Origin: Capsulimonadales bacterium
GTDB taxonomy: Bacteria; Armatimonadota; Armatimonadia; Armatimonadales; Armatimonadaceae
Direction: 5' to 3'
Length of the DNA stretch: 64,000 nucleotides
Assembly: GCA_033762295.1 (NCBI GenBank)
Contig: JANRLW010000064.1
Coordinates: 32,001-96,000, forward strand
A model generated the notes under the pieces. The model saw nothing but the letters and a program-made list of their open reading frames with translations, was not told the DNA's origin and ran no database searches. The position numbers were made by a program, and so were the translations under genes. Every line of letters begins with the position of its first letter. Position 1 is the first letter of the stretch. Shown here in pieces: positions 19,761-35,605 of this stretch.

Positions 19761-20258
19761 CTACGTTAATTCTAACTTAGAGAGGAACGTTTCAAAGTCT
19801 GGCGCTATAGTCCTGACCAATACAAACGGGTATTGCTCTGAATAAACGCTAATCACCTGCGGACTGTCGGCGTCTGTGTAGCAAAGCGCAACCCCGCCGT
19901 GTCCCTCATGGGATAGGACTACGCTACTTTTTGGATACCCCCACTGCTCTTTCAAACAATCGTTCCATAACTTGCCATTAACCACCCTGTTTATACCGTG
20001 CTGACTACAAATACCGAAAAGGGTGCTTACGGATATATACCCTTCCGTGTCCGCGTCTGGAAAACTCTCTGTGTCAGCACCTACATAGAAGCGATTGGGA
20101 TGAAGCAAGCCACCATTTCTAACTTTCAGAACAGCAGTTAGTGACTTAGGCAGGACGAAGCCAAGTTGCCGTTCCGCTTCGCTTAACATACTCGCAGTTA
20201 GCGGCGGACACGTCAAATCATCGTCTTGTATGTCCCAAAACAATTTCTGAATATCCAC
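19761..20258 (-). CDS. SMI1/KNR4 (SUKH) family immunity protein
   Basis: LSEAERQLGFVLPKS...NGG, HEGHGGVALCY, IAPDFETFLSKL; directly downstream of a toxin tip. Confidence 0.88.
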   Translation of the reverse strand: MDIQKLFWDIQDDDLTCPPLTASMLSEAERQLGFVLPKSLTAVLKVRNGGLLHPNRFYVGADTESFPDADTEGYISVSTLFGICSQHGINRVVNGKLWNDCLKEQWGYPKSSVVLSHEGHGGVALCYTDADSPQVISVYSEQYPFVLVRTIAPDFETFLSKLELT

Positions 20259-20275
20259 TAATTATCAATACACTT

Positions 20276-20911
20276 TCAGAAATCGAAAATGTGAACCTTG
20301 TCCCACAGTTGCCGGTTGTTTAACAGGTAGTTCATTTCTGCTTCTGTAATCGGCGTGTCAGTGCCAATGTTCTTCGTATTGAACAGTATGCGCTTCGCGC
20401 CCTGCGCTTCCGCCGCAAAGCCAGCCGGGTCGTTAAGGATGTTGACCGATGTTCTTCTCGGAATGCCTAATCCTGACCGTGCGCCGCCCGCTAACTTAAA
20501 CTCTTGCATGAAGCGGTTCCAAGAGTTTGTCAGAACATTCCCCTTATTCGTACCTAAAACCAAGTCATAGCCACATTGGTTGTGAACCCAAATGCCGCCG
20601 TTTGCCTTGCCGACGAAATAGGTATGGTCGCCTTCTACCTCGAAGTTGTAGACCGCGACGCCTTCGGGGTGGCTCTCGCGGGTGATGGACTTGACCACAA
20701 GGGCGGGGCCAGCGCGGACAAGCACCTTCGTTCCGATGCCTAACTGCCCCATAGCAACCATGCCCCCGCCTTCCACGAAGAACGGGTGTTCCGGCGTCCC
20801 CTTGATGGTTTCCACTACCTTACCGGTTGTTGCGTCGGCGAACTCACCTTTGACCAATTCGTAGGCGGTTCGCTTGAACGTGCGGGTCACCGTGCGAACG
20901 GTCGCCTTTCC
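20276..20911 (-). pseudogene. 5'-truncated polymorphic toxin: partial pretoxin Hint domain + C-terminal toxin tip
   Basis: TPEHPFFV, VYNFEVEGDHTYFVG...WVHN Hint end; Hint N-terminus (CF) missing, sequence joins small-gene remnant at ~20911/20912. Confidence 0.85.
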
Positions 20912-21043
20912 AAGAACGGCGGCAGACCGTGTAAGCCGCTGGAAGACTACGCCTGCACTTGCGGCGGCGACGGTCTGGAACATCGGGCGTCCTGCCCGCG
21001 TGGTCAGGCGATATACCGGCGGCGCAAAGCGGGAAAGTTATAG
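20912..21043 (+). pseudogene. small basic CxC-H-C protein remnant, copy B
   Basis: KNGGRPCKPLEDYACTCGGDGLEHRASCPRGQAIYRRRKAGKL*, homologous to copy A. Confidence 0.75.
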
Positions 21044-21053
21044 GAGCGGGCTT

Positions 21054-21563
21054 TTACAGCCGGTGCGCTCCGTGCGCTTCCGGGTCATAGCCGGAAGGCC
21101 ATACTGTGTTATCATTGAACTTCACTCCACTGAGCAGGGGCGAAGTTTCCGAAGGGGAACGCAGGTCAGCCAAACCGTTTACCAGCACCTTTGCCGCTTC
21201 AAGCGTAACCCCTTGCAGTGATGTTCCAATCACCGTTGCGCCGGTTAAATCGGCCCCTTGTAGAAGGGCATCGTCAAAAGTCGCGCAGTCAAGGTAAGCG
21301 GATTGCATCGTCGCATTGGTCAAGTTGGCTCTATGAAGGTAGGCATTCGTAAGGTTCGCGCCCGTTAAATCCGCGCCTGACAGGTCGGCTTCCCGAAGGT
21401 CGGCATTACGCAGGTCGGCACTACGTAGGGACGCTCCTTTAAGGTCGGCTCCGACAAGCCATGCACGGTGTAAATTCGCCCCGTCAAGGTTGGCTCCTTG
21501 TAGGGTGTCTACATCGAACGTTGCCATCACCTTTGCCGTTGTGTAGTCACGCACCTGGTACAC
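21054..21563 (-). CDS. pentapeptide repeat protein (in immunity-gene position)
   Basis: Tandem A(D/N)Lxx repeats, C-terminal T.WP.GYDP; RBS GGAG upstream of GTG. Confidence 0.88.
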   Translation of the reverse strand: MYQVRDYTTAKVMATFDVDTLQGANLDGANLHRAWLVGADLKGASLRSADLRNADLREADLSGADLTGANLTNAYLHRANLTNATMQSAYLDCATFDDALLQGADLTGATVIGTSLQGVTLEAAKVLVNGLADLRSPSETSPLLSGVKFNDNTVWPSGYDPEAHGAHRL

Positions 21564-21610
21564 GGTAGTTCTCCCTGCAAAGTATAGCCCGTTCTAATGG
21601 GGCGTTTGTT

Positions 21611-21670
21611 GCGGCGCGTCAGGCGAACGGATACAAAGGCAGGGGAAGGCCACGTAAAGCCCGTACCTAA
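21611..21670 (+). pseudogene. small basic protein remnant, copy C (AT-hook-like)
   Basis: AARQANGYKGRGRPRKART* matches AAVAANG..GRKP and NGGRP of copies A/B. Confidence 0.5.
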
Positions 21671-21728
21671 ATGCCGCGTGACTGAACCGCAGACATTAAA
21701 AACATTGACAAGACATCACACCGGATTA

Positions 21729-22022
21729 TTAAGCAATATTATTGTTAATTACGCTCTTAACAAAGTCTTCAACAACCCGTCTTGCAGCACCCCAATCACT
21801 GAAGGCATATGTCTTCCAGTAGACTTGCGCTCCGCTGTCTACGTCAATTACTTCTAAATCACAACTCCCTAAGTCCCACAATGTAACTCGCGCCATCTTC
21901 ACCTCTGTCTCTACATCTAAGTAGGCAGAGTTATTTGCGTTCGTTACGAATGAAAGTGTAGCCGCGTCCGCTTCTCGGCTCCATTCATTGAACCATTGTC
22001 GGAATTGTTCAGTTAGCGCCAT
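21729..22022 (-). CDS. TriTu-like immunity protein
   Basis: F..W...ARVTLWDLGSCDLEVIDVDSG resembles the TriTu RFTVWDD.SC..EVMDVDTG pattern as recalled; overlaps end of TreTu-like tip. Confidence 0.72.
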   Translation of the reverse strand: MALTEQFRQWFNEWSREADAATLSFVTNANNSAYLDVETEVKMARVTLWDLGSCDLEVIDVDSGAQVYWKTYAFSDWGAARRVVEDFVKSVINNNIA

Positions 22023-22489
22023 TTGCTTGCTATCGGATTTATATTTTGTGCGGCAGGCATTTGTGGGATAGGCAAACCTTTACGAGCAGCCAAACGGCCT
22101 TGAAGAGAGTTCGGACCAATAATTTTTGCCCACCCTTCTGAAGTTGGAACAACAGATGAAGAAGGAACATCAAACTCAACATAAACAGAACCGGGTTTGG
22201 CTTGCCGTATGAAAGCATTCATGTCTGCTGGGTGAGCAACGTGTGTTGTACCACTTAGTACTACAGCGGCACATAGCCTGAAAAGCCGTCGGGAACCGTA
22301 AGAATAGTGTTATTGGTTGCGTCTGGAGCCTACCCCTGGCAGACGAAAAATCAACTGCGGCTGTAGTACTAGGCTTTCTGGAACCATGCCTGTTCGTTCC
22401 ATAGCAGCCAACTCATCAGGGTGCATCCATCGTCCTACTGTGGTAAGACAGTCGTTATGCACCCATGTCCCACCACTGGCTTTGCCAGC
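22013..22489 (-). pseudogene. TreTu-like ADP-ribosyltransferase toxin tip with Hint tail, 5'-truncated and interrupted by a MITE
   Basis: After removing the insertion: GKASGGTWVHN/DCLTTVGRWMHPDELAAMERTGMVPESLSGTTHVAHPADMNAF...YVEFDVP...EGWAKIIGP...GRLAARKGLP. Confidence 0.8.
22258..22369. mobile_element. 112-bp MITE / IS remnant with terminal inverted repeats (IS701- or IS630-like ends)
   Basis: Left TAGTACTACAGCGGCA vs right reverse complement TAGTACTACAGCCGCA (15/16 including the flanking TA); removing the element plus one TA restores the toxin frame. Confidence 0.85.
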
Positions 22490-22513
22490 CGCCGGGAGGC
22501 GGCCAAGTTGTAG
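22490..22513 (+). pseudogene. small basic protein remnant, copy D (last 7 codons)
   Basis: RREAAKL* vs RRKAGKL* of copy B; same 10-bp gap to the convergent stop codon. Confidence 0.45.
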
Positions 22514-22523
22514 GGATTATTTG

Positions 22524-22781
22524 CTATGCTGGCAACGATGTTGGAGCAATAACCGTTAAGCCATAATCCTCTGCTAAGTATTCGACCTTACGGAACTCTT
22601 CGCTTGTAAGCCAAATATCTGCCTCTTCTTCAGACGCGAACGAGTAGAACTTTTGCTCAACCTGTATTGTTGCCGTCCCGTCAGTAAGGACATGGAGCAA
22701 CGCAAGATACAAAGTGCGCTGGTCGCTGTAGAATGCGGCATCGTCATACCACCATTCGGACCTAATCACAGACTGTTTCAT
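22524..22781 (-). CDS. putative orphan immunity protein
   Basis: 85-aa acidic/aromatic AT-rich ORF in the toxin array, overlapping the end of the upstream ORF. Confidence 0.55.
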   Translation of the reverse strand: MKQSVIRSEWWYDDAAFYSDQRTLYLALLHVLTDGTATIQVEQKFYSFASEEEADIWLTSEEFRKVEYLAEDYGLTVIAPTSLPA

Positions 22782-23079
22782 AAGTATATGGTTCTATGGT
22801 AGTTACTGTGCAGGCTATAGAATCGTTTGCGTTGCCGTTCTTTGTCGATACCATTGCTTCGCTTTCGCCCCACAGACCGAACAGCGCGACGAAGGCGACC
22901 AATATGCCAACCGTCCACAGGGCGAACGGTCGGCGCGGCGCGTTCGTCACCGGCGGGGGCGTTGCCGCCGTCGTGTTCGGCTTCGGCGTCGCTATCTGCT
23001 TGGCTTTCTGCTCTTGCGCCTTCCGGTCGGCGCGTCTTTCTTCCCGGTTCATGGCTTGCCGCCTAAAATGCCCGTTCAC
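22762..23079 (-). pseudogene. chimeric ORF: GC-rich N-terminal leader with TM helix fused to AT-rich toxin-like tail
   Basis: RBS GGAGG, charged leader + TM (FALWTVGILVAFVALFGLW), abrupt composition change near 22860. Confidence 0.45.
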
Positions 23080-23152
23080 TGCCTCCCGACGGCAAACCCC
23101 CTTGCACAGAGCAAGCGGGGCGACTTCGTTGTCATTCCTGCTCAGAGGAGGG

Positions 23153-23455
23153 TTAGAAAATTGGCTTGCAGTTCTCGGCTACTTCCACCTTCCCGCCGCG
23201 GGCTTCAAAGCCGACGGCACGGTCCCTTAGAATAACCGTATCCTCGTACACGCTATCCGCGTTCACCTTTTCAATCTCGAAATTCGCCCCATCCCATCCT
23301 GTTGGGCCGCATAAAAAAGACAGGTCGGCACAGCTTATATGAAGGTTGCCCTTGCTTCCCTCACGTTCGACCCGGAGTGTCAGCACTCTATGGGAGACGG
23401 TGTACTCCCATATTTTGACTCTGCCTCCCCGCCACCTGTTGATAAGTGTTTCCAT
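23153..23455 (-). CDS. putative immunity protein
   Basis: 100-aa ORF just downstream of a toxin-like tip; IWEYTVSHRVLTLR pattern. Confidence 0.6.
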   Translation of the reverse strand: METLINRWRGGRVKIWEYTVSHRVLTLRVEREGSKGNLHISCADLSFLCGPTGWDGANFEIEKVNADSVYEDTVILRDRAVGFEARGGKVEVAENCKPIF

Positions 23456-23464
23456 GACAGGAAT

Positions 23465-23764
23465 TTACGGTATGGATACCGGGCTTCCTCCCAAGTAAAA
23501 AGGTGTTTTCGCATGGGAGGCCGGGTTAGTCATAATGTAGTGAAGTTCAGAATCGGTCATGTTTACCAAACGAAAACCGTCTGTTCCTTTCCGCACAGCA
23601 TTTTCCACACCTTCAACGCCCATACCATCAAGCGCAAAGTGGATATGACGCGCTCTGTGTACCGCGTGATGGAAAGCGCGTCCTCTACCCATTATCGTTG
23701 CTTCGCTCAACTTGTGAGTATAAAAACTCAAATCCGCACCGGATATTTTTTGTCCGTTAGCCAT
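23465..23764 (-). pseudogene. orphan, probably chimeric, polymorphic toxin tip fragment
   Basis: C-half ARHIHFALDG...MTDSELHYIMTN...KTPFY parallels AKRILFN...ITEAEMNYLLNN...KVHIF of the tip at 20276. Confidence 0.55.
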
Positions 23765-23923
23765 CGCATTGCGCCTTCCGTTCCTCCGAAACGACCGGAC
23801 GGGCGCGGCGGGCGGTCCGGCAGGAAATCCGTCGAAACGAAACCGAAAAGGGCTCTGCGTTTCCCGTGCGGTTCAGGTTCTTTAGCGCGGAACGTTTCGC
23901 GGCGATAGTGGTATAACGAGACG

Positions 23924-25699
23924 ATGCTTCGACGATTCTTCGCCTATTATCGCCCCCATCTCGGGCTGTTCAGTCTGGACTTCTCCTGCGCGGTCCTCTC
24001 CGGTCTGCTCGAACTGGCCTTTCCGCTGGCCGTTCGCTCCTATGTCGATCAACTGCTGCCGAGCGGCAACTGGACCCTGATTCTGGGGGCGGCGGCGGGA
24101 TTGCTGCTGATCTATCTGATCAATACCGGTCTGCAATACGTCGTCAACTACTGGGGACACGTTCTCGGTATCTCCATCGAGACGGAGATGCGCCGTAAAA
24201 TTTTCGATCATCTGCAAAAACTATCCTTCCGGTTTTACGACAACCAGAAAACCGGGCATCTGGTCGCGCGGATTACCAAGGACCTGGAGGAGATCGGCGA
24301 GGTGGCGCACCACGGTCCGGAGGACGCCTTTATCGCCATCATGACCTTCCTGGGCTCCTTCGTCCTTATGTTCCAGCTGCATCCCCAACTGGCGCTGATC
24401 ACCGGGATTGTCGTCCCGCCGATGACCTTCATCTACACCCGCTACGGACGGGCGATGACCCAGACCATGCGGAACCTCTTCAGCCAGGTCGGGAATTTTA
24501 ACGCCCGCATCGAGGAGAACGTCGGCGGTATCCGCGTCGTGCAGGCGTTCGCCAACGAGGAGCACGAACGTAAACTTTTCGCCCTCGACAACGAAAAGTA
24601 CCGCGACACCAAGCTGGACGCCTACCGCCTGATGTCCCGCAGCATGTCGCTCAGCTACATGACCATGCGTATCGTCCAGCTCTTCGTCATGATCGCCGGC
24701 GCCTACTTCGTTCTGCGGAATCAACTGACGGTCGGCGGGTTTATGGGCTTCCTGCTGCTGGTGAACGTCTTCTTCCGCCCGGTCGAGAAGATCAACGCCG
24801 TGCTGGAGACCTATCCGAAGGGGATCGCCGGGTTCAAACGCTACACCGAACTGCTGGACACCGTGCCCGATATTCAGGACGCTCCGGACGCGATCGACGC
24901 CGGGCATCTTCGGGGGGATATCCGTCTGGAAAACGTCAGCTTCGGTTACGACACCCACAAAAAGGTGCTGAACGGGATCGATCTGACGATTCGTGCCGGG
25001 GAGACGATCGCCTTCGTCGGACCCAGTGGCGCGGGCAAGACGACGATCTGCTCCCTGGTGCCCCGCTTTTATGAGATCGACGGCGGACGCATCACCATCG
25101 ACGGCCTCGATCTGAGGACGTTGACGCTGGCCTCCCTGCGCCGGAATATCGGGATCGTTCAACAGGATGTCTTCCTGTTCGCCGGGTCGATCCGCGAGAA
25201 TATCGCCTACGGCCGACTGGAAGCGACCGAGGAGGAGATTTGGGACGCGGCCCGTCGGGCGCGTCTCGACGAGATGATCGAACGTCTGCCGGACGGACTC
25301 GACACGATCATTGGCGAACGGGGCGTCAAGCTGTCCGGCGGACAGAAGCAGCGACTCGCCATCGCCCGCATGTTCCTGAAGAATCCGCCGATCCTGATCC
25401 TGGATGAGGCGACCTCCGCCCTGGATACGGAGACCGAACGCGCGATCCAGGCGTCGCTTGCCGAACTGGCGGTAGGGCGTACGACCCTGGTGATCGCCCA
25501 TCGACTGGCGACAATCCGCAACGCCGATCGAATCGTGGTCGTGGACGAGTCCGGGGTGGCCGAACAGGGACGTCATCAGGACCTGCTGGCCCGTGGCGGC
25601 GTCTACGCCCGTCTGCACGAGGCGCAAAACGCTCCGCCGATCGGTATGGAGTCCGTCCGGACCGGGCGCAACCACCCCGGCGAACCGGTCAGGGTTTGA
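23924..25699 (+). CDS. ABC exporter, fused permease + ATPase (MsbA/YwjA-like)
   Basis: TM domain, GPSGAGKTT, LSGGQKQRLAIAR, ILDEATSALD, IAHRL. Confidence 0.95.
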   Translation: MLRRFFAYYRPHLGLFSLDFSCAVLSGLLELAFPLAVRSYVDQLLPSGNWTLILGAAAGLLLIYLINTGLQYVVNYWGHVLGISIETEMRRKIFDHLQKLSFRFYDNQKTGHLVARITKDLEEIGEVAHHGPEDAFIAIMTFLGSFVLMFQLHPQLALITGIVVPPMTFIYTRYGRAMTQTMRNLFSQVGNFNARIEENVGGIRVVQAFANEEHERKLFALDNEKYRDTKLDAYRLMSRSMSLSYMTMRIVQLFVMIAGAYFVLRNQLTVGGFMGFLLLVNVFFRPVEKINAVLETYPKGIAGFKRYTELLDTVPDIQDAPDAIDAGHLRGDIRLENVSFGYDTHKKVLNGIDLTIRAGETIAFVGPSGAGKTTICSLVPRFYEIDGGRITIDGLDLRTLTLASLRRNIGIVQQDVFLFAGSIRENIAYGRLEATEEEIWDAARRARLDEMIERLPDGLDTIIGERGVKLSGGQKQRLAIARMFLKNPPILILDEATSALDTETERAIQASLAELAVGRTTLVIAHRLATIRNADRIVVVDESGVAEQGRHQDLLARGGVYARLHEAQNAPPIGMESVRTGRNHPGEPVRV

Positions 25700-25830
25700 G
25701 ATAGGGGGCGAGGACCTGCGTCCAGAGTTTGTACCCCTCCGGCGAAAGGTGAAGCCGGTCCGCGACGTACAGTTCCGGACGTGGCTCACCGTTCTCCCCG
25801 AGCATCGGGGTATGGACGTCCACGAACGCC
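25614..25830 (+). repeat. 217-bp direct repeat, copy 1 (left island flank)
   Basis: Identical to 30540-30756 except A25701/G30627. Confidence 0.96.
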
Positions 25831-25874
25831 GACCGGGTTTGTCGATGCCAGGTGTACGGGTTGGCGGCGGACCG

Positions 25875-27272
25875 CTATGACCTTTGGTTGTTTTGAAGTG
25901 CAGTCCGGGTCATCAGGTCGAGCACCTTTCCCCCTGGTGAGAGGCTGATGGCTGTATACCGATGGGCAAGAGCTATGGGTATCACGGCATTACGATAAAG
26001 ATCGCTCTCGAAATGATTGATCAACGCCAATGCTCGCGAAAGATTCGGGTAATTGGCCATGTCTGTCTTGAAAGTTTTGTGAAAACTCGGATTTCCACTT
26101 TTTGACGCTACCGGGTAAGGTATGCCAAAGACGAAGTTGCGTCCGCTCTTGCTTTTGTAAATGAAATCTTGCCCATAATAATCTTCATCCCCAAAGCCAT
26201 TCTTCGCCTCCGTCCTCTGAACAATATGTTCATACCGGTAATCGTCGGCGATGGGAAGGATGCGTTCGCGCGGTACATATTTCTCGATTAGAGTAACGTG
26301 GTCGACAACTTGTCCCGTCTTTTGAAGGCCAATCATCAGAAGGTCAGGACGACCAAGGGAGTGAAGTTTCTTTCGGACGGTATCCAAGTAAGACATGATC
26401 GCACGGCTTAACCAGGCACCGTTGCCGAACACGGCCAGCGGCCCATCCATAAAGAAAGCGACATCCCCCAGTACATTGGGCATTATTTTCATCATGTGTC
26501 GAGCCCAGTGAATCGGTAGCATATGCTCCACTTGGAGCATACACCGGGAAAGTGCCTGATAGCTGGACTGGAAATCGCTGACCTCTTCCCAGAGACGGAG
26601 GCAATCCGACGGATAGATTTCGTTTTTGCAAGCCGGGCAGAATTGCGGTTCAGGAACATCCTTCACCTTTACGTCTTGTTCAGAGCAGGACGGACACCGC
26701 GACACGGTTAATGTCATCGTATCCCTACCGCCATGGCGGTGGCTTGCGAGATGAAATAATGTGGTACGAAGGCTCGTGTCTGGATCATTCGCCACAAAAC
26801 GCGTATTCTCACCATAAAGGTAGGCGTCGAGAACAGCGCGGAAACTATCCCGGACGGATTTCTTCCCTTTGAGAACGTTAGCACTCGGCAAGACGATCAA
26901 GAGTGAATCCTTGTTGCGTTGCAATGCGGCAACCTTAAAAGGATCAACAAACTTCCGGTCCGGCGTACGCAGATCACCGAACTCCGAAAGCATGATCATC
27001 ATGGCACTGACCTTGATGTAGCCTACTTTGCTACTCGGAAGTTTGTCATCTATACTCGATTCGTGAACGCTTCCATCCACTGCGACAATTCGCTCCGGGA
27101 GCGTCTGCGGGTCGCCGAGGGCGGTCGGCGAAAACATTTCGGCAATCGCCTGCCCTTCCTCATCCGACGGTTCTCGCAGGTATTCGCACTCCGCAAGAAA
27201 CGCCGCGACATCCGGATTCTTGATGATGTCGGAATGAGACGCCTTATTGGCAAATTCCCCTTGGTATGGCAT
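25875..27272 (-). CDS. NurA-like nuclease with inserted Zn-finger
   Basis: IVAVDGS, FMDGPL, IGLQKTG, PIALAHRY; CPSC...CPAC insertion; start MPYQGE with GGAGG/GAGGG upstream. Confidence 0.82.
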   Translation of the reverse strand: MPYQGEFANKASHSDIIKNPDVAAFLAECEYLREPSDEEGQAIAEMFSPTALGDPQTLPERIVAVDGSVHESSIDDKLPSSKVGYIKVSAMMIMLSEFGDLRTPDRKFVDPFKVAALQRNKDSLLIVLPSANVLKGKKSVRDSFRAVLDAYLYGENTRFVANDPDTSLRTTLFHLASHRHGGRDTMTLTVSRCPSCSEQDVKVKDVPEPQFCPACKNEIYPSDCLRLWEEVSDFQSSYQALSRCMLQVEHMLPIHWARHMMKIMPNVLGDVAFFMDGPLAVFGNGAWLSRAIMSYLDTVRKKLHSLGRPDLLMIGLQKTGQVVDHVTLIEKYVPRERILPIADDYRYEHIVQRTEAKNGFGDEDYYGQDFIYKSKSGRNFVFGIPYPVASKSGNPSFHKTFKTDMANYPNLSRALALINHFESDLYRNAVIPIALAHRYTAISLSPGGKVLDLMTRTALQNNQRS

Positions 27273-27285
27273 CCCTCTATCCTCC

Positions 27286-29286
27286 CTAACCGGATATAGA
27301 ACGGACCCTTTCCTTCTCCGTTTCCGGGTCAAATTTATCAATCTGAACCGGAGTCACGAACGGACTGGAAAGAGTTTTTACACGGGCAAAGCCTACGTCT
27401 TGCGCCCGCACGATACTCCGGGAGAAGTCTTCGAAATCGTAGAATTGCGCCAGTTCCTTAACTTCACGCGCGTTATTGAGGTGGCTGATGAACCAATTTT
27501 CTGTGTTCGACAGAATATTCGGGTGTACGCTGGAAACTTCTTGGGTAGCGTAGACCAAGCCAATCCGGTATTTCGCTCCCTCTTTGGCAAGACGTGGCCA
27601 TGTTTCCGTCAATTCGAGATTCTTCCCAATCAAGTTATGGGCTTCTTCAATATAGACGACAATGTTTGGGGGAAATTTGCCCTCCACGAAAACTTTCATA
27701 TTCTGATCGAAAATCCGCTGTGCTATCGACTTACTGATCTTTTCCCGCAGGGTCGGGTCGCCTACCGAAAGGTCGAGAATGACGATATGTCCCTTCTTGA
27801 GGTATTCGTAAACCTCGGTGCTTACATCACCGCTGCGTCGCGGAGAGTGGTACGGCTCGATCGCGACAAGATCACGCCATCCATTAATATAGCTGCCATT
27901 TTGTTGTTGAAACAGCATGTCGAGTAGTACTTTTAACGTATCATCGATCCATGGCTTTTTTGATGAACTGGACATTAATGGTTTTTGGGCATTCTCTGCC
28001 ACCGCATTCCTAAACCATTCGACGGCCTCCTCTAAAGAAAAGCCGTTACTTGGATTGCCTAAGTCAACGCCCGCGATATTATTAACAGCCTGGCGAATCG
28101 TTGCGTTTGCATCAAAATAAACGCGATGATTCTCTGGCGGCTTAAACCCAGCCCTAAACAGCAGGCATTTATATACCGCTAAGCGAACTTGCCAGCGCTT
28201 GAATTCAGAACTGTTTTTCTCCTCGGGTTGATCAAAGCTGAGGCCGTGGAAGACGGTGATGTATCCACTGGTTCGGCCAGCAAGAGCCATCTCGCGCTTG
28301 ATGATTTCAAACCCTTCGGTTACTTGCTCGTAAAAGTTGTTGCGAAGTTCATTGAATCCTTCTGCGGGGAGCATTCGATACCGAACGGTATCGTCGGGAT
28401 AGACATCCGCTATCGAGCCATTGTCTTGCTGGTTGGCGTTCGCATACTCTCCGTTTAGGTCGAAGATGATTTGTCCAATCTTCAATCCACCCTGGAGGGA
28501 GACACGCTTAACTACGGCGACTGTCTGCTTCACCATATTGGATTTGCCGGTTCGAGTCATGCCAAGGACGGCCGTCCGACGCGCAAGGAAGTCTGACGGC
28601 TGAATCGCGACAGGTACTTTCTCGTCATCACTTCCGCGATGCAAACGGTCAGTAGACGTATACCGCACCGTTCCTAACTGGATTGGCTGAATGCTTCCTT
28701 TAATCCCGAGGGCTTTTGCCTCCTCTTCAGCTACGGCTTTTCGGATTGGGTCGACATAGTTTACGATGATTTCCAGGGCTTTTGTCCTGGGGCGATAGAC
28801 TTTGAGACGTGCGGCACTGGCAAACGATTCGAGGTCGCTGCCCATCCGGAGGTTGGAATTCTTATCCATGTAAAACGTGCCCAAGACACGGCACTGAAGC
28901 CCGCCAAACTGCATCCGGGACTGGGTGATATCGTCCATCCCCTCATCGATAGTCGGCGAAGCTTGCTCCTGGAAGTTGTCGATCTTGGTGCGGACGTTAT
29001 CGTCATCCTGTGGCAATCGACATGAACCTACGACACGTAAAAGGATCACCTCTGCGTCTGTGGGATCGAAATTGTTTGCGCCGTCTGCGGAGGCATCAAA
29101 TGCGCAGGCGATAAGGAAACTGTTATGGGGAATACCTAAGGCTTCGGCCTTCCACTTGTCGTTGGTCATCACCAAAGCCCAGTCGTAATCGATATTGTAA
29201 ACCCACCCACAAAAGTTCTCGGTCTGGATCAAGCGGAAAAGGGGATGGTTTTCCGCGACTATCCGACCCATGTTTCTGAGGCTCAT
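27286..29286 (-). CDS. HerA/FtsK-like ATPase (DUF87) with HAS-barrel-like N-terminus
   Basis: Walker A GMTRTGKS, IFDLNGEY, Walker B VYIEEAHN, KEGAKY, ATQ. Confidence 0.9.
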   Translation of the reverse strand: MSLRNMGRIVAENHPLFRLIQTENFCGWVYNIDYDWALVMTNDKWKAEALGIPHNSFLIACAFDASADGANNFDPTDAEVILLRVVGSCRLPQDDDNVRTKIDNFQEQASPTIDEGMDDITQSRMQFGGLQCRVLGTFYMDKNSNLRMGSDLESFASAARLKVYRPRTKALEIIVNYVDPIRKAVAEEEAKALGIKGSIQPIQLGTVRYTSTDRLHRGSDDEKVPVAIQPSDFLARRTAVLGMTRTGKSNMVKQTVAVVKRVSLQGGLKIGQIIFDLNGEYANANQQDNGSIADVYPDDTVRYRMLPAEGFNELRNNFYEQVTEGFEIIKREMALAGRTSGYITVFHGLSFDQPEEKNSSEFKRWQVRLAVYKCLLFRAGFKPPENHRVYFDANATIRQAVNNIAGVDLGNPSNGFSLEEAVEWFRNAVAENAQKPLMSSSSKKPWIDDTLKVLLDMLFQQQNGSYINGWRDLVAIEPYHSPRRSGDVSTEVYEYLKKGHIVILDLSVGDPTLREKISKSIAQRIFDQNMKVFVEGKFPPNIVVYIEEAHNLIGKNLELTETWPRLAKEGAKYRIGLVYATQEVSSVHPNILSNTENWFISHLNNAREVKELAQFYDFEDFSRSIVRAQDVGFARVKTLSSPFVTPVQIDKFDPETEKERVRSISG

Positions 29287-29460
29287 GTCGTCCGTACTCC
29301 TTTGCTCTCACTTTACCGGACATTAGGAGTTACCCACTCGCCGAAAAGCTTACCTACCTTAACATGAGAGCACTTTGGCGTCAATAGTAGACAGGAGATA
29401 GTAACGAAAGCGAAGGGTAGAGAAGAAGAAAGGAGGATTTTGCGAACGGCTGCACAATAG

Positions 29461-29477
29461 ATCAGGGATACCCTGAT
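29461..29477. promoter_or_regulatory. inverted repeat overlapping MTase start
   Basis: ATCAGGG-ATA-CCCTGAT in the HerA/MTase divergent intergenic region. Confidence 0.3.
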
Positions 29478-30474
29478 GAAAGTTGCCACATTAGATATCG
29501 ACGTGTTGGAGGATAATGATCGACCGAACGAGGATGCCGTCGTTTGTCCAGGCTCTTCCGAAACAGGAACACTCCCGTACGCTAAGCCCATCCTGGTCGA
29601 TTATATTTCACGTCTGCCCAAGCGCAGCCCCTTTCGTTATCCCGGGGGAAAGACCGCTTTAATCCCTGGGTTCAGACTATGGCTCAAAAGTCTCTCCCGT
29701 CGCCCGAAGGTTGTGGTCGAACCCTTTGCGGGAGGAGGCACAATGTCCTTGACAACCGTCATGGAAGATTTGGCTGACGGAGCATGGATGAACGAACTCG
29801 ATCCGACCATCAGTGCTTTTTGGAAAGCTACCTTGAACCCGGAGGAGGCTGAATGGCTTGCCAAACGCATATTAAACTTTGAGGTCAATACCGAGAGCGT
29901 TGAAGCAGAATTGCGTCGTACAACGACTACTCAGCGCGAGATCGCCTTTCAAACCCTTCTCCGAAATCGGACGAACCGCGGTGGACTGATGACACCAAAT
30001 AGCCGATCGCTTCGCAAAGGTGAAAATGGTCGGGGAGTCCGATCGCGTTGGTATGCAGAGACGCTTTCTGCACGGATTCGAGATATTGCGGCCGTTCGAG
30101 AGAAGATAACGTTTACGACCGGTGACGGAGTTGCCATAATTTCCAAGCACTTGGAGGAAATAGGTATGGCGTGGTTCATCGATCCTCCTTATTCTGTCGG
30201 AGGCAAAAAGGCAGGGGATAGGCTATATAACCATTCCGGCGTCGACCATGAGGCGCTTTTCCTCTATGTGTCCCGTCTCGTTGGTCCATGGTTAATGACA
30301 TATGACGACGCTCCTGAAGTTCGTAAATTGGCACAATGTTTTGGTTTCGAAATCGAACCGGTCGTACTTCGAAACTCCCACAATCGAAATTCGGGTGAAT
30401 TACTCATCGCCTGGAACCTTTCTTGGGCAAGAGGGCAAGACGCTTGCAGCAAGTTGCCGCGCCCTATCGGATAA
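29476..30474 (+). CDS. DNA adenine methyltransferase, D12/Dam-like alpha class
   Basis: SPFRYPGGKT, VEPFAGGG (motif I), NELD, FIDPPY (motif IV), MTYD. Confidence 0.92.
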   Translation: MKVATLDIDVLEDNDRPNEDAVVCPGSSETGTLPYAKPILVDYISRLPKRSPFRYPGGKTALIPGFRLWLKSLSRRPKVVVEPFAGGGTMSLTTVMEDLADGAWMNELDPTISAFWKATLNPEEAEWLAKRILNFEVNTESVEAELRRTTTTQREIAFQTLLRNRTNRGGLMTPNSRSLRKGENGRGVRSRWYAETLSARIRDIAAVREKITFTTGDGVAIISKHLEEIGMAWFIDPPYSVGGKKAGDRLYNHSGVDHEALFLYVSRLVGPWLMTYDDAPEVRKLAQCFGFEIEPVVLRNSHNRNSGELLIAWNLSWARGQDACSKLPRPIG

Positions 30475-30539
30475 GCCATATTAACATGCCCAATAACCGT
30501 ATCGGAAATAGCATATGACCATAGCTCAAATGTTCCCGA

Positions 30540-30756
30540 TGCACGAGGCGCAAAACGCTCCGCCGATCGGTATGGAGTCCGTCCGGACCGGGCGCAACCA
30601 CCCCGGCGAACCGGTCAGGGTTTGAGGTAGGGGGCGAGGACCTGCGTCCAGAGTTTGTACCCCTCCGGCGAAAGGTGAAGCCGGTCCGCGACGTACAGTT
30701 CCGGACGTGGCTCACCGTTCTCCCCGAGCATCGGGGTATGGACGTCCACGAACGCC
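30540..30756 (+). repeat. 217-bp direct repeat, copy 2 (right island flank)
   Basis: Matches 25614-25830 with 1 mismatch. Confidence 0.96.
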
Positions 30757-31334
30757 ATGTTTTTTTGCGTCCCGATCCAGTCGGCGATGTTTTTGTTGGC
30801 CGCTTGAATCCGATCCTGAAACTTCCACCGGGACGGACTCGGCTTGATCGCCAGATAGAGGATCTTCGCTTCCGGCAGAGCCGACCGGATCTTCAAAGCG
30901 AACGTTTGAAAATCCCCGGTCACCTGCGCCGACGTATGACCGGCGGCGATGTCGTTGTCCCCGGCGTAGAGAACCACCGTCTTCGGGGCGTAGGGAAGAA
31001 CGATCCGGGCGGCGTAGAAGGTCGAGTCCGGAATGTGGGAACCGCCGAACCCGCGATTGATCGTCGGCAGTCCGGGGAAGTCGGTGGCCAGCGTCTTCCA
31101 TTGAACGATCGACGAGGAACCGACGAACAGAATGCCGCCCGGCGGGGGCGTTCCCTTTTCCCGGTCCGCCGTCTCAAAGGCGACGATGGCCTTTTCCCAG
31201 AGGGCGGTCCGCTCGGGGTACGATTGCGGTTCGGACTTCGGGGGCGCGGTCGATTGCGCAAGGGCGGGAACCGTCGCGCCGAGAGTCAGGACGGACAGGA
31301 CGACCAGGGTCCTGCGAAAAAAACAGGTTTGCAT
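30615..31334 (-). CDS. secreted GDSL/SGNH hydrolase
   Basis: Signal peptide, FVGSSSI, NRGFGGS, YAGDND, DRLHL. Confidence 0.9.
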   Translation of the reverse strand: MQTCFFRRTLVVLSVLTLGATVPALAQSTAPPKSEPQSYPERTALWEKAIVAFETADREKGTPPPGGILFVGSSSIVQWKTLATDFPGLPTINRGFGGSHIPDSTFYAARIVLPYAPKTVVLYAGDNDIAAGHTSAQVTGDFQTFALKIRSALPEAKILYLAIKPSPSRWKFQDRIQAANKNIADWIGTQKNMAFVDVHTPMLGENGEPRPELYVADRLHLSPEGYKLWTQVLAPYLKP

Positions 31335-31347
31335 CTACCGGAGCCTA

Positions 31348-32007
31348 TCACGATTTGTCGCTCAGATACCAGGGTTTCGTCCCGTGGACGACGGTCACGG
31401 TCTCAGGCGGCGAGACGACCGGCGGGCGAACGACCGGTGGCGTCGGCACTGGGACCGTGGCGCGGGGGGGCAGAGTCGCGTCCGGGACGTAGTAGGTGCG
31501 AAACGCTTCCAGAAATTGCTGCAGGTCACCGGCGTTCAGGCGTCCGTTCGGAAGGACGTACGCGGTGGTCGAACCGATGAACAGAAACGTATGATCCGCC
31601 GTTGCCTCGATCCTCTCGAACGCGCCCCAGGCAAGGCGTGTCTCCTGATATTTCGTCCGGACGATCAGACCCTCCGGAACGACCTCCAGTTCGTGTTCGG
31701 TGAACAAACGGCGGTTTCCCGGCTCCGAGTACAGCTGACGGACCATTTCCTGTACCGATCGGCGATATTGACGCGACGACTTCCAGGCGAAGATTGCGGC
31801 GTAAAGGAGCGGCAGCAGAAGGACGAGCGGCGACAGGCTCAGAGGTTCGAGCAGAATCGTCAACAGAAGGAACGAGAGAAGGGAAGCGAGGATCGCTCCG
31901 GTCAGACGGTAGCGTTGGCGCGCCCGGCGAAGCGTCGGGGATTGTTCGTGGTTGTAATCGCTGAGGGCCACAATATCGTCGATCGTATTGGAAAATCGCA
32001 ATTTCAC
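31348..32007 (-). CDS. YcxB-like membrane protein
   Basis: Two TM helices then GL.V...E.RLAW...TADHTFLF...AYVLP; GTG start. Confidence 0.72.
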   Translation of the reverse strand: MKLRFSNTIDDIVALSDYNHEQSPTLRRARQRYRLTGAILASLLSFLLLTILLEPLSLSPLVLLLPLLYAAIFAWKSSRQYRRSVQEMVRQLYSEPGNRRLFTEHELEVVPEGLIVRTKYQETRLAWGAFERIEATADHTFLFIGSTTAYVLPNGRLNAGDLQQFLEAFRTYYVPDATLPPRATVPVPTPPVVRPPVVSPPETVTVVHGTKPWYLSDKS

Positions 32008-32058
32008 GGAGTGCCTCTCGCGTCGGGCGTCGGATGGCTCATTGTACAGGATTACCTC

Positions 32059-32688
32059 GTGACTACCAACGGAGCAAATCAGGTACAACAGTGTATGGAA
32101 CTGCTGACGTTCGGCCTGAACGCCTGGAAATCGGAACCGGCGATGCGGATCGAGGACGCCTACAAATGGCTGTTCCATGCGGTCCGCGGTGGCGAACATG
32201 CGGTCACCGACCCGGATGGGCCGCGCCGCTGGCTCGACCGGGAGTGGCTGACGCTGGACGGACCGTTTCCGAACGAACCGCTGGTGGTTGCGCTGCGTCC
32301 GGACCGGGCGATCGTCCGACTGAACCTTCGACCTTACCGGGCGCGCGGGGGCGGCCGGGAGCGACTTCTGCAAGCGTTCGTCCGAAGCGCGCACGGATTC
32401 CGGGGGGAAGCGGCCACCTTTGCCACCGTCTGGCGCGAACTGGGTCGGACTTTGGAACGGGGCGACCGGGGCGCATTGACCGCCGCAGAGTGGCGGCGTT
32501 GCGACCGGGAGACCGCCCCCGATCACTACCCTGCGCTCCACCATAGCGAACACTACGAGAAGATCCGGAAGCCCGCCTACCGTGTGCTGACGGCGACGGA
32601 GGCGGCAACACTGTCCGCTTCCCTGCGTCCGTCCGGAATCGGCAGGAGCGGGGAGGGCAAAGCGGCCTCCGGACGATACACTCCCTGA
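32059..32688 (+). CDS. conserved hypothetical protein
   Basis: EDAYKWLF...GGEH, VRLNLRPY, HHSEHY...PAYRV; upstream of the dehydrogenase. Confidence 0.65.
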   Translation: MTTNGANQVQQCMELLTFGLNAWKSEPAMRIEDAYKWLFHAVRGGEHAVTDPDGPRRWLDREWLTLDGPFPNEPLVVALRPDRAIVRLNLRPYRARGGGRERLLQAFVRSAHGFRGEAATFATVWRELGRTLERGDRGALTAAEWRRCDRETAPDHYPALHHSEHYEKIRKPAYRVLTATEAATLSASLRPSGIGRSGEGKAASGRYTP

Positions 32689-32700
32689 CAGGAGAAAACG

Positions 32701-33693
32701 ATGCGCGTTTTTGTTTTCAGCACCCGACCCTATGATCGTGACGCTCTGGAGAAGGCCAACGGCGGCCAGCATGAACTGACCTTCTCACCGGTCTCGCTGG
32801 ACGAACAGACGGCCGCACTGGCGAAGGGCTACGAAGCCGTCTGCCTGTTCGTCAATGACCGGGCGGACGTCGGGACACTGGCCAAACTGGCCGAGGGGGG
32901 CGTCCGGATGATTGCCCAGCGGTCCACCGGTTTCAACAATATCGACCTCGAAGCGGCACACCGACACGGAATCAAGGCGTTCCGTGTCGGGTACTACTCG
33001 CCGTACGCCGTCGCCGAACATGCCGTCGCCCTCCTTCAGACCCTCAACCGACGAACCCATCGCGCCTTCAACCGCGTCCGGGAGAATAACTTCCTTCTGG
33101 ATGGCCTGGTCGGACGCGACATCCACGGGCGAACCGTCGGCATTCTCGGAACAGGGAAGATCGGGACGGTCTTCGCCCGGATCATGAAGGGGTTCGGCTG
33201 CACACTCCTCGGTTACGATGTCGCGCCGAACCCGCAGTGTCTCGAACTGGGCGTGTCCTATGTTCCGGTCGAGGAACTGGCGGCGCGCGCCGATATTCTG
33301 AGTCTGCATCTGCCCCTGACCCCGGAAACGCATCATATCATCAACGCCGACGTACTGAATCGGACGAAACCGGGCGTGTTTCTGATCAATACGAGCCGGG
33401 GCAAACTGATCGACACGGACGCGCTGATCGACGCCCTGAGGACCGGGCATATCGGCGCGGTCGGCCTCGATGTCTATGAGGAGGAGGAGAGTCTGTTCTT
33501 CCGTGATTTTTCGCAGGACTACGTGCGTGATGACCGGTTCACCCGCCTCCTGTCGTTTCCCTCCGTGCTGGTGACCGCCCATCAGGCGTTCCTGACCGAG
33601 GAGGCTCTGGCGACGATCGCCCGAACGACCCTGCAAAACCTCTCGGACTTCGCCGAGAATCGCGATAACGAGAACCTCCTGCCGCCGCGATAG
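32701..33693 (+). CDS. ldhA: D-lactate / 2-hydroxyacid dehydrogenase
   Basis: VCLFVND, YSPYAVAEHA, GTGKIG, INTSRG, LDVYEEE, TAHQAFLT. Confidence 0.9.
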   Translation: MRVFVFSTRPYDRDALEKANGGQHELTFSPVSLDEQTAALAKGYEAVCLFVNDRADVGTLAKLAEGGVRMIAQRSTGFNNIDLEAAHRHGIKAFRVGYYSPYAVAEHAVALLQTLNRRTHRAFNRVRENNFLLDGLVGRDIHGRTVGILGTGKIGTVFARIMKGFGCTLLGYDVAPNPQCLELGVSYVPVEELAARADILSLHLPLTPETHHIINADVLNRTKPGVFLINTSRGKLIDTDALIDALRTGHIGAVGLDVYEEEESLFFRDFSQDYVRDDRFTRLLSFPSVLVTAHQAFLTEEALATIARTTLQNLSDFAENRDNENLLPPR

Positions 33694-33765
33694 CCGGGGC
33701 CTGCAACCCGCCGCCGCCGATCCGGGTCCCATGAGAAGGTAGGCCCCGTAGAGGAAGGAGTAGTG

Positions 33766-34272
33766 ATGAAATTTCCGATACATCCGTTATCCGTGTATCT
33801 GGCGGCGATCGGTCTGGCGGTTGGCCAGGTGCTTTACTACTTCCCGTTATTGCCGGACACCCTCGCCAGCCATTTCGGTCCGAACGGAACGGCGGACGGC
33901 TGGATGGGGAAGGCGGCGTTTATGACGTTCTACCTGACCCTGCTTCTCGTGGTTGCCGCGGTGTTGGCCGGGGTCGGACTGCTGATGACGAAACTGCCCG
34001 TCGATATGATCAACCTGCCGAACCGAGAGTACTGGCTCGCCCCGGAACGACGGGCGCGGACACAGGGGATACTTCAGGAACGGATGACCTGGTTTGGCGC
34101 AGCCACCCTTATCTTCCTGATCGCGATGATGCAGCTGACATTCCTGGCGAACCTGGGGGCCGAACCGCGCCTTGACAATCGCGCGATGATTGCGACCATC
34201 GGCTACCTGGTCTTTACGATGTTCCGGACGATCGGCCTGATTGCGAGTTTCTCCCGGGTACCCGACCGCTAG
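33766..34272 (+). CDS. DUF1648 (SdpI-like N-domain) membrane protein
   Basis: LPDTLASHFGPNGTADGW, NLPNREYW, 4 TM helices. Confidence 0.8.
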   Translation: MKFPIHPLSVYLAAIGLAVGQVLYYFPLLPDTLASHFGPNGTADGWMGKAAFMTFYLTLLLVVAAVLAGVGLLMTKLPVDMINLPNREYWLAPERRARTQGILQERMTWFGAATLIFLIAMMQLTFLANLGAEPRLDNRAMIATIGYLVFTMFRTIGLIASFSRVPDR

Positions 34273-34295
34273 CTTGCTGGCGACCGTGCGAGGTG

Positions 34296-34304
34296 TGTTA
34301 TAAT
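34296..34304 (+). promoter_or_regulatory. extended -10 promoter element
   Basis: TGtTATAAT upstream of the TPR/M50 genes, followed by hairpin 34305-34329. Confidence 0.5.
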
Positions 34305-34443
34305 GAGCCGGAAGCCACGCTTCCGGCTCGTCAATCGTTACGTATTCCGAAATAGCCTCTCATCTCTTCTATCTTCGGAACCCATTCGTTCATCATTCAG
34401 GGCTCGGTAGCCCGGCATCGCCCCTGATTCAGGAGACTGCGCC

Positions 34444-35577
34444 ATGTCCGTTCCGCCTTTTAACGTCGGCAATCGCGTTCAAGAAGCCATGCGTCTGTTG
34501 CAGTCCGGCAATGCCGACAGCGCGGTCGCGATCCTCGAAACCGAGATCCGGGAAAACCCTCAGAACGGCACCGCGTTCCAGTATCTGGGCGTCGCCCGCG
34601 CTCAGACGGGAGATGTCGGCGGCGGGATCATGGCCTTGCGCGAGGCCATCCGCCTGATGCCCGGCAACAGCGCCGTCCATTACAACCTCGGTGTCGCTCT
34701 GGCGCAGGCCAAACAGGTGGAGGAGGCGCGACCGATCCTCGAAAAGGCGTACGCGCTCGATCCGGGGAATGATCGGGTCCGGGCGGCGCTCGAAAAACTC
34801 GGCTTTCCGGTGCCGTCGCCGAGAATGCCCGCGCCCGCCGTCGACACGGGCCGTACGGCCGTTTTCGATCTGGGGATCGATACGCCGGCGCCTCCCGTCC
34901 CGATGCCTCCGCCTCCCGCCCCTGCGCCTCCCCCGGCGTCCCTCCTCGGAACGATCGGCGGGGGCGCGTACAACTCGCCCCCCTCCGCCGCACCCGCCCC
35001 GCCGGCCCCGCCCGCGTACGGACCGCCGCCGTCGTACGGACCGCCACCGTCATACGGACCGCCGGCGCATGGTTCGTTGCCGGCCGCCGCTTCCACCGGG
35101 TTGGGTGGAGATGCGGTCGCCGGAGGGATGTACGTACCGCCCGCGGCCGTCACCTCGCAGATGATGGGTCGCGAACCCAGTGCCGGGGAGCGGATCGGTC
35201 GCGGGCTTGGCTGGGGCGCACTTTTCGGACAGTGGTGGACCCTGTGGATCATGGTGTCCGTCTTCCTTTTCCGGGGGCTGTTCGGTCAGACCTCGATGCC
35301 CGTGTTCCTCATCATGACCGCGCTTCTCGTTCTTCTCTTTGCCGTGGTCGGAGGCGTCACCGGCCTGATCATCGGTATTACGAATGCCGATGATGAAGGC
35401 GGCGCGATGATCGGTATCGGAGCCGGTATCCTCTGCTTCATCGTCGAAACGGCCATTACGCTGATGGGCGGCGGCTTTTCCTTCGGGATCATCATCAACG
35501 CGATCTGGTGGTTCTTCACCGGACGCTTCGTCGGCGCGAACGTCGGACGCCGGGTTCAGGAACGGATCGGCGTCTGA
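34444..35577 (+). CDS. TPR + proline-rich linker + 4-TM membrane protein
   Basis: TPR motifs (YLGVA, HYNLGVALA), PPPSYG repeats, C-terminal TM helices. Confidence 0.8.
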   Translation: MSVPPFNVGNRVQEAMRLLQSGNADSAVAILETEIRENPQNGTAFQYLGVARAQTGDVGGGIMALREAIRLMPGNSAVHYNLGVALAQAKQVEEARPILEKAYALDPGNDRVRAALEKLGFPVPSPRMPAPAVDTGRTAVFDLGIDTPAPPVPMPPPPAPAPPPASLLGTIGGGAYNSPPSAAPAPPAPPAYGPPPSYGPPPSYGPPAHGSLPAAASTGLGGDAVAGGMYVPPAAVTSQMMGREPSAGERIGRGLGWGALFGQWWTLWIMVSVFLFRGLFGQTSMPVFLIMTALLVLLFAVVGGVTGLIIGITNADDEGGAMIGIGAGILCFIVETAITLMGGGFSFGIIINAIWWFFTGRFVGANVGRRVQERIGV

Positions 35578-35605
35578 AACAGGAACGGAGCGAAATCGAG
35601 CCGGA

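Follow-up and report, generated by a model that had tools for sequence, protein, structure and literature searches.

A horizontally acquired HerA-NurA-methyltransferase island in a Capsulimonadales genome as a candidate restriction-modification-like defense cassette

The closest described relative of the locus discussed here, a three-gene island within a 64,000-nucleotide stretch of DNA from a Capsulimonadales bacterium (GenBank assembly GCA_033762295.1, contig JANRLW010000064.1, positions 32,001 to 96,000; "the window" below), is TdpABC (PDB 8wet, 8wfd and 8y1k). An et al., writing in Nat Chem Biol in 2025 (doi 10.1038/s41589-024-01832-w), reportedly found that TdpAB no longer translocates or cuts when self DNA carries phosphorothioate. 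TdpABC is listed as a phosphorothioate-based restriction-modification (R-M) system in the available portion of PMC13223576, and tdpC alone makes the phosphorothioate mark according to the portion available of PMC12914056. Similar kinds of genes occur in the tdtA operon of Thermus thermophilus ICEth1, which comprises Tth111II, the NurA-like TTC1878, TdtA and the PF01555 methylase TTC1880, as given in the accessible part of PMC5365140. PD-Lambda-5 is described by Vassallo et al. 2022 as a compacted system of R-M and abortive infection (Abi), in the section available of PMC9519451. A defense system combining a DNA methyltransferase (MTase), HerA and NurA was not found in our literature searches, the coverage of which did not include An et al. 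2025 and Iyer et al. 2004, and the word NurA is absent from PMC10853773, which concerns HerA/FtsK capture systems.

The island (25831-30539, 4709 bp) holds three intact genes and nothing else: a NurA-like gene (25875-27272, minus strand, 465 amino acids, aa; Pfam NurA, PF09376), a HerA-like gene (27286-29286, minus strand, 666 aa; Pfam DUF87/HerA) and an MTase gene (29476-30474, plus strand, 332 aa; Pfam MethyltransfD12). Judging from the sequences and their comparison with other loci, we think that these genes probably form a self-contained, horizontally acquired R-M-like defense cassette of TdpAB type, with methylation as the self mark. The HerA-like and NurA-like genes are co-oriented, with 13 nt (27273-27285) between the HerA stop codon and the NurA ATG; this ATG has a GGAGGA Shine-Dalgarno sequence upstream of it, and the longest open reading frame (ORF) begins at 27341. 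The MTase gene is divergent across a 189-nt intergenic region (29287-29475, GC 0.476). The island has a GC content of 0.504, whereas its flanks stand at 0.607 and 0.623 and the window as a whole at 0.602. Pfam was run on 17 candidate ORFs in 19761-37930, on ORFs of at least 150 aa elsewhere in the window and on the three island genes, and among the ORFs scanned no Mre11, Rad50, restriction endonuclease (REase), integrase or transposase was found, nor any conjugation gene; the island itself has no recombinase gene and none was recognized by Pfam among the scanned window ORFs. The initial annotation, made from the DNA letters alone, had described three AT-richer genes filling this interval, a co-oriented HerA/NurA pair 13 bp apart, a divergent alpha-class adenine MTase, a zinc finger in NurA and the lack of Mre11/Rad50 and of a recognizable REase, and all of this description stands. 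For the island proteins no NCBIfam family scored above its cut-off. Homologous genes in public records are annotated as DUF87, as NurA or hypothetical, and as DNA methyltransferase.

Pfam recognizes the nuclease barely, at 21.3 bits against a cut-off of 21 and over residues 61-134 (the N-terminal part) only, and NurA homologues elsewhere score 30-50 bits over the whole domain. The AlphaFold (AF2) model of the protein has a predicted local distance difference test (pLDDT) score of 96.2 and a predicted template modeling (pTM) score of 0.93, and its best Foldseek match is TdpB, chain 8wfd_G of the TdpAB cryo-electron microscopy structure (E 3.3e-9). VIA-align superposes the two with Z 20.5 and a root-mean-square deviation of 4.1 over 317 of 358 residues; other NurA proteins follow, that of Sulfolobus (2ygk) at Z 15.2 and those of Thermococcus, Pyrococcus and Deinococcus together with TM1739 at 10-13. 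Individual scores include 13.1 to 9x1m_G, 12.5 to Pfu NurA and 11.8 to 7f6d_G, and the PIWI and EndoV rows are well below, near 8. On the predicted model and these scores, the protein has the RNase H-like NurA fold. A profile of 108 sequences searched against PDB also places TdpB on top (E 7e-4), matching in three co-linear pieces that include the N-terminus MPYxGE and both DG motifs. With the single NurA sequence as query, phmmer found no solved relative in PDB. A 21-sequence profile searched against PDB found no solved NurA and gave matches to KRas (E ~0.007), which we regard as spurious.

The family is large: of 8000 candidates that were scored, 1240 are relatives at E<=1e-3, and a separate count gives 1090 protein clusters at 50% identity, 408 of them below 1e-30. 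Across the 108-sequence alignment D66 (of the DGS motif) and D223 are invariant, and G67, C193, C196, C212, C215, R226, E249, D276, G277, K318 and G320 are kept in at least 90%; D66, D223, E249 and D276 probably correspond to the catalytic residues of solved NurA. The four cysteines (CPSC...CPAC; 26628-26696, minus strand) form a Zn-ribbon insert, the zinc finger noted in the initial annotation, and their pattern CPxC...CPxC is kept in both deep clades. In the predicted model this region has beta-hairpins at residues 187-192 and 199-204, and the segment bearing it exceeds its TdpB counterpart by ~80 aa. The N-terminus MPYxGE (residues 1-6; 27255-27272, minus strand) is nearly invariant in the family, and TdpB starts MPYAGE; this suggests a conserved functional N-terminal tail on NurA.

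The HerA-like protein scores 44.2 bits for DUF87/HerA against a cut-off of 23.2. It carries Walker A (GMTRTGKSN, 28537-28563) and Walker B (VVYIEEAH, with E547 and E548 at 27643-27648), separated by a long helical insert, and both GMTRTGKSN and IEEAH are invariant in alignments of 15 and of 40 HerA sequences. As a single sequence its closest PDB match is TdpA (E 5.8e-19); with a 15-sequence profile TdpA (8wet_A) reaches E 6.3e-36, the next HerA in PDB being at 1.9e-19. The NCBIfam HerA equivalog scores 54 bits against a cut-off of 800. PADLOC HerA models match at up to 8e-20, and as to the eight-gene MADS set (mad1-mad8), the three proteins give a mad8-like HerA match (8.7e-12) and no match to any other mad model. 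By analogy with solved relatives, the protein may be a hexameric ring that binds a NurA dimer. The MTase scores 36.5 bits for MethyltransfD12, matches the PADLOC model PD-Lambda-5_B at 6e-42 and is the only D12 MTase in the genome; its motif I (EPFAGGG, 29719-29739) precedes DPPY (30181-30192), which assigns it to the alpha class of N6-adenine DNA MTases. The catalytic motifs of all three proteins are intact.

A 217-nt direct repeat bounds the island exactly (25614-25830 and 30540-30756). Its copies are identical at 216 of 217 positions, the sole difference (A at 25701, G at 30627) being synonymous in the lipase reading frame. The repeat has a host-like GC of 0.659 and consists of the 3′ ends, overlapping by 11 nt, of two convergent host genes, an ABC transporter gene (23924-25699, plus strand) and a GDSL lipase gene (30615-31334, minus strand). 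The true transporter 3′ end (stop codon 25697-25699) is in the left copy, where the last 47 lipase codons are repeated without function, and the true lipase 3′ end (stop codon 30615-30617) is in the right copy, where the transporter 3′ end is likewise a non-functional duplicate. Both host genes are thus whole, since the left copy completes the transporter and the right copy the lipase. The repeat sequence is found at only these two sites in the 5.16-Mb assembly. Low GC and flanking repeats together are the signature of an inserted island, and we conclude that the island was horizontally acquired. It is the footprint that a circular molecule bearing a duplicate of the target would be expected to leave on recombining with the chromosome. 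No empty site was seen among seven relative loci with an orthologue of the ABC transporter (80-87% aa identity), all from beyond the genus; other genes follow the transporter there, with no GDSL lipase within ~1.5 kb downstream. Long direct repeats bracketing the trio were found in none of the 10 other loci searched. One locus (L007) has an 88-nt direct repeat (91% identical; 2883-2970 and 3648-3735) that copies the 3′ end of a GNAT gene just upstream of HerA, both copies lying on one side of the cassette. The 44 bp after the left repeat were considered as a continuation of the diverged lipase fragment and this was ruled out, their translation having no similarity to it.

The distribution of the family is patchy. 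It occurs in 10 of the 401 genomes of the phylum (this genome included) and in 10 of 207 genera, and one of the 23 other genomes of the same taxonomic family carries it, at a different site and on a different tree branch. Insertion sequence (IS) elements disrupt the cassette copies in two loci (L005 and L008).

Where the family does occur, an MTase gene is nearly always next to it. Among 10 loci from species genomes an MTase adjoins HerA-NurA in nine, and DUF87 was detected in nine; among nine further loci sampled from genomes of the phylum Armatimonadota eight have an adjacent MTase and the ninth is cut by a contig end, so that the combined count is 17 of 19. In 80 metagenome loci, scored by hidden Markov models (HMMs) built from alignments made in this analysis, an adjacent MTase was found in 56: 50 of D12 type upstream and co-oriented, abutting HerA directly, three of D12 type downstream and three of the permuted N6_N4 type downstream. 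The other 24 comprise two with D12 fragments at a contig edge, 20 too short to judge and two informative loci with no MTase. In 70 of the 72 metagenome loci with room for HerA, it is the gene immediately upstream of NurA. Next to the pair no Mre11, Rad50 or REase was found in the 19 Pfam-annotated loci, and among the loci inspected in detail a recognizable REase inside the cassette occurs only in one (L096, below). On a plasmid of Halorarius halobius (NZ_CP101164.1, 120027-124803) the trio is annotated as DUF87, a hypothetical (NurA-like) protein and a DNA methyltransferase; the cassette therefore crosses the divide between bacteria and archaea.

The linkage of MTase to HerA-NurA is recurrent and has survived changes of MTase family, position and strand. 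At least three solutions exist, namely D12 upstream, permuted N6_N4 downstream and the D12 lineage associated with NotI that is seen in the island. The downstream class has DPFxGRG before TSPPY, and since both are invariant these MTases look active. A maximum-likelihood NurA tree was built from 32 rows, picked by hand out of ~100 loci. On it, MTase type or position requires seven changes, the minimum possible for seven labels being six; the permuted N6_N4 type requires two changes, which are forced by well-supported branches. The island NurA groups with three N6_N4-type loci (moderate support, 91/86) inside a group that also holds D12-upstream loci, and its closest rows on the tree include all three MTase types. 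From this grouping and the low identity among the MTases it follows that closely related HerA-NurA pairs stand beside unrelated MTases.

The surroundings of the other copies vary. A small PIN-domain gene lies between HerA and NurA in L002 (5466-5915) and L004 (5464-5916), and a gap separates the two genes in L085 and L091. A UvrD_C-type protein follows NurA in L003. Defense-type neighbors were seen in L001 (a Schlafen-like helicase and Cas1), L037 (an AAA_15/AAA_21 ATPase) and L075 (a STAND (NB-ARC/NACHT) NTPase upstream of HerA-NurA), and other copies sit among housekeeping genes.

In the mechanism that we propose, the D12 MTase would put N6-methyladenine on the DNA of its own cell, a HerA hexamer would act as an ATP-driven DNA translocase on which a NurA dimer docks, and the complex would thread and degrade DNA without the mark. 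By analogy with TdpAB, the methyl mark may block loading, translocation or cleavage, with no matching of MTase and nuclease through a cognate recognition sequence. We propose such generic methyl sensing because MTases are freely exchanged beside closely related HerA-NurA pairs. A candidate for sensing the mark is the family-specific Zn ribbon of NurA, which is conserved in the island NurA family and is apparently missing from TdpB. In a bolder version, which is tentative and which we hold to be possible and somewhat doubtful, TdpAB-type HerA-NurA would be a mark-agnostic plug-in restriction module, open to pairing with any DNA-modifying enzyme, that reads modifications (phosphorothioation, N6-methyladenine, N4-methylcytosine and perhaps 5-methylcytosine) as roadblocks and not through a cognate sequence, the NurA Zn ribbon would be a methyl sensor, and in the island HerA-NurA would have replaced a NotI-type endonuclease and kept only its MTase.

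Several points weigh against a methylation-marked defense cassette. To our knowledge no experiment has been carried out on any member of the family. The loci surveyed share ancestry, so the linkage counts are not independent trials. The two informative metagenome loci without a recognized MTase (L074, 1647-8543, and L075, 2922-9893, which are near-copies with enough flank) carry a UvrD helicase and a PD-(D/E)XK nuclease downstream of HerA-NurA, and on a cyanobacterial plasmid HerA-NurA is accompanied by an exonuclease gene, no MTase being annotated there; the HerA-NurA pair can therefore exist without one. Among the papers covered, the one experimentally studied operon with NurA-like, HerA-like and methylase genes, that of ICEth1, is tied to DNA donation and not to defense (PMC5365140, available part). 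The island MTase is itself unusual. In L003 and L004, which have the closest HerA-NurA pairs, HerA is 62-63% and NurA 56-57% identical to the island counterparts, and the MTase just 24-28%. Its divergent layout is seen in none of the 80 metagenome loci. Its own lineage adjoins a NotI-family REase (PF12183) in 10 of 12 sampled loci, these being long contigs that were chosen and not a random sample; of the remaining two, a contig end truncates the first, and the second has neighbors of no assigned family. The MTase could thus be the orphaned remnant of a type II system.

That last point underlies the alternative that survives best, which we nonetheless consider unlikely: the neighbors would be accidental, the MTase being the orphan of a NotI-type type II system and HerA-NurA a separate, methylation-independent defense that is abortive or degrades DNA ends. 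Besides the REase partners, the low identity to cassette MTases and the divergent layout, this alternative is favored by how much commoner the MTase lineage is in the phylum, at 53 of 401 genomes (E<=1e-15; 39 near full length, 42-49% identity to the island MTase), than HerA-NurA at 10 of 401, and by three genomes that have both, in which the MTase lineage lies elsewhere and not beside HerA-NurA. On the other hand, the island consists of exactly these three intact genes, and HerA-NurA elsewhere is almost always linked to an MTase. Two loci bring the lineage itself together with the pair. L093 has HerA, NurA and then an MTase 37.5% identical to that of the island, with no REase. L096 (908-6395) has a tightly packed operon in which an HTH_17 regulator, a D12 MTase (43% identical), a NotI-family REase, HerA and NurA share one orientation and overlap at their ends; in it an entire type II system is fused with the motor and nuclease genes. 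We read the island as a cassette whose MTase was replaced by one from a NotI-type system, with L096 as an intermediate.

RecBCD degrades restricted DNA, and by this parallel HerA-NurA might be a shredder that needs the first cut of a separate endonuclease, in which case the island would be incomplete or crippled, its REase lost. We rate this as lower still in probability. The L096 operon, where a NotI-like REase accompanies the MTase, HerA and NurA, speaks for it, as does the ICEth1 operon with its type IIG REase, NurA-like, HerA-like and methylase genes (available part of PMC5365140) and the action of archaeal HerA-NurA on DNA ends, reported in the portion available of PMC12977600. Against it stand the rarity of an REase inside the cassette, L096 being the only case among loci inspected in detail, the 50 metagenome loci in which an upstream D12 MTase abuts HerA directly, and the intactness of all three island genes. 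Moreover, no NotI-family gene was found here: in the window no tblastn match to any of five NotI-family queries had an E-value below 0.08, and PF12183 was not found in the genome, which is 94.5% complete, while the same search succeeded in three of three genomes known to have it. The initial annotation had raised the prospect that MTase linkage might exist only through an REase lost here. This applies in part: the lineage of the island MTase is mostly paired with NotI-type enzymes, and the REase is missing here.

We regard as improbable a machine for donating or transferring DNA of the kind encoded by the TdtA operon of Thermus ICEth1, where DNA is processed and exported by a NurA-like nuclease together with a pump of HerA/FtsK type. 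In its favor, ICEth1 has the same kinds of genes, and transjugation there depends on the NurA-like and TdtA genes (PMC5365140, available part). Against it, the scanned ORFs of the window lack the context of such an element, namely an integrase, conjugation genes and an REase, including one of type IIG, and the closest solved relatives of the island proteins are the defense proteins TdpA and TdpB. Least probable of all is housekeeping end resection at double-strand breaks as by archaeal and Deinococcus HerA-NurA, which is suggested by the NurA fold, the HerA motifs and the name "DNA double-strand break repair nuclease NurA" that NCBI gives to some homologues, and is opposed by the lack of Mre11/Rad50 nearby (in the scanned window ORFs and the 19 loci), the presence of the family in just 10 of 401 genomes of the phylum, the low-GC inserted island, the tight MTase linkage and the HerA equivalog score so far below its cut-off.

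The R-M-like self/non-self reading put forward in the initial annotation is supported by comparative and structural evidence. Of the checks proposed there, linkage to MTases proved recurrent, and PADLOC names no system for the trio, having no model for this NurA and matching HerA and the MTase with generic models only. If the reading is correct, the widespread trio of DUF87, NurA and DNA methyltransferase, which several bacterial phyla and an archaeal plasmid carry, would be an unnamed class of R-M system, the nuclease arm of which would be an ATP-driven ring translocase with NurA rather than a sequence-specific endonuclease. It would also tie the phosphorothioate-based TdpABC to ordinary DNA methylation. 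This raises the question of how a DNA pump could tell methylated from unmethylated DNA while its MTase partner is freely swapped. What this locus adds is a clean insertion footprint, a MTase of the NotI lineage in the place of the cassette MTase, and the L096 intermediate.

With respect to regulation, the region between HerA and the MTase has a single promoter-like match (29359-29388, plus strand), which is not above chance for the region, and the promoter and terminator scan as a whole was not above chance, with five promoter-like sites against 4.4 expected and seven terminator-like sites against 5.4. An AT-richer stretch with leftovers of polymorphic toxins lies 4 kb upstream of the island (19761-22022). 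By Pfam it contains a SUKH-1/SMI1 immunity gene (19761-20258), an ORF with a PT-HINT domain (20276-20983), a pentapeptide-repeat gene (21054-21563) and a TriTu immunity gene (21729-22022), all on the minus strand, and looks like a toxin-immunity cassette array.

Compared with known systems, the island shares with PD-Lambda-5 (PMC9519451) an MTase that matches its B component, while PD-Lambda-5_A has no match. With Sir2-HerA and DUF4297-HerA (Gao Her) it shares a HerA-family ATPase with an effector, and their solved complexes are among the PDB matches of the island HerA; it differs from them in that the effector is NurA, an MTase is present and the HerA profile is much closer to TdpA. The likeness to NotI-family type II R-M systems lies in the MTase, which is 42-49% identical to those of the lineage adjacent to PF12183, whereas a NotI REase was not found in the island, window or genome, and HerA-NurA occupies the neighboring position on the opposite strand. 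In ICEth1 too, a single operon encodes a DNA methylase along with a NurA-like nuclease and an ATPase of HerA/FtsK type, and the mobile element that carries it is flanked by direct repeats, but there NurA precedes the ATPase, a type IIG REase is present and the element is a 14-kb integrative and conjugative element (ICE) with an integrase (PMC5365140, available part); this likeness is one of gene kinds. The HerA-NurA of archaea and Deinococcus resembles the island pair in NurA fold, HerA Walker motifs and adjacent, co-oriented genes, while the island pair is without Mre11/Rad50, patchy, carried on an imported island and almost always linked to an MTase, and its sequence similarity is too low for phmmer or the 21-sequence profile to find a solved NurA. 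The initial annotation had allowed for a match to an already named system, and in TdpABC there is indeed a relative; the island is not a member of it because it has an MTase and no TdpC. Its modification gene encodes an S-adenosylmethionine (SAM)-dependent DNA MTase, no TdpC-like or sulfur-transfer enzyme was found in the island or among the Pfam-annotated neighbors in the 19 loci, its NurA family has the Zn-ribbon insert that TdpB apparently lacks, and whereas TdpABC is a system of thermophiles the island family is not confined to them. Even so TdpABC is the nearest comparison: the island HerA is closest to TdpA and the island NurA closest to TdpB, and in both cases a single-gene DNA-modification enzyme stands beside the motor-nuclease pair.

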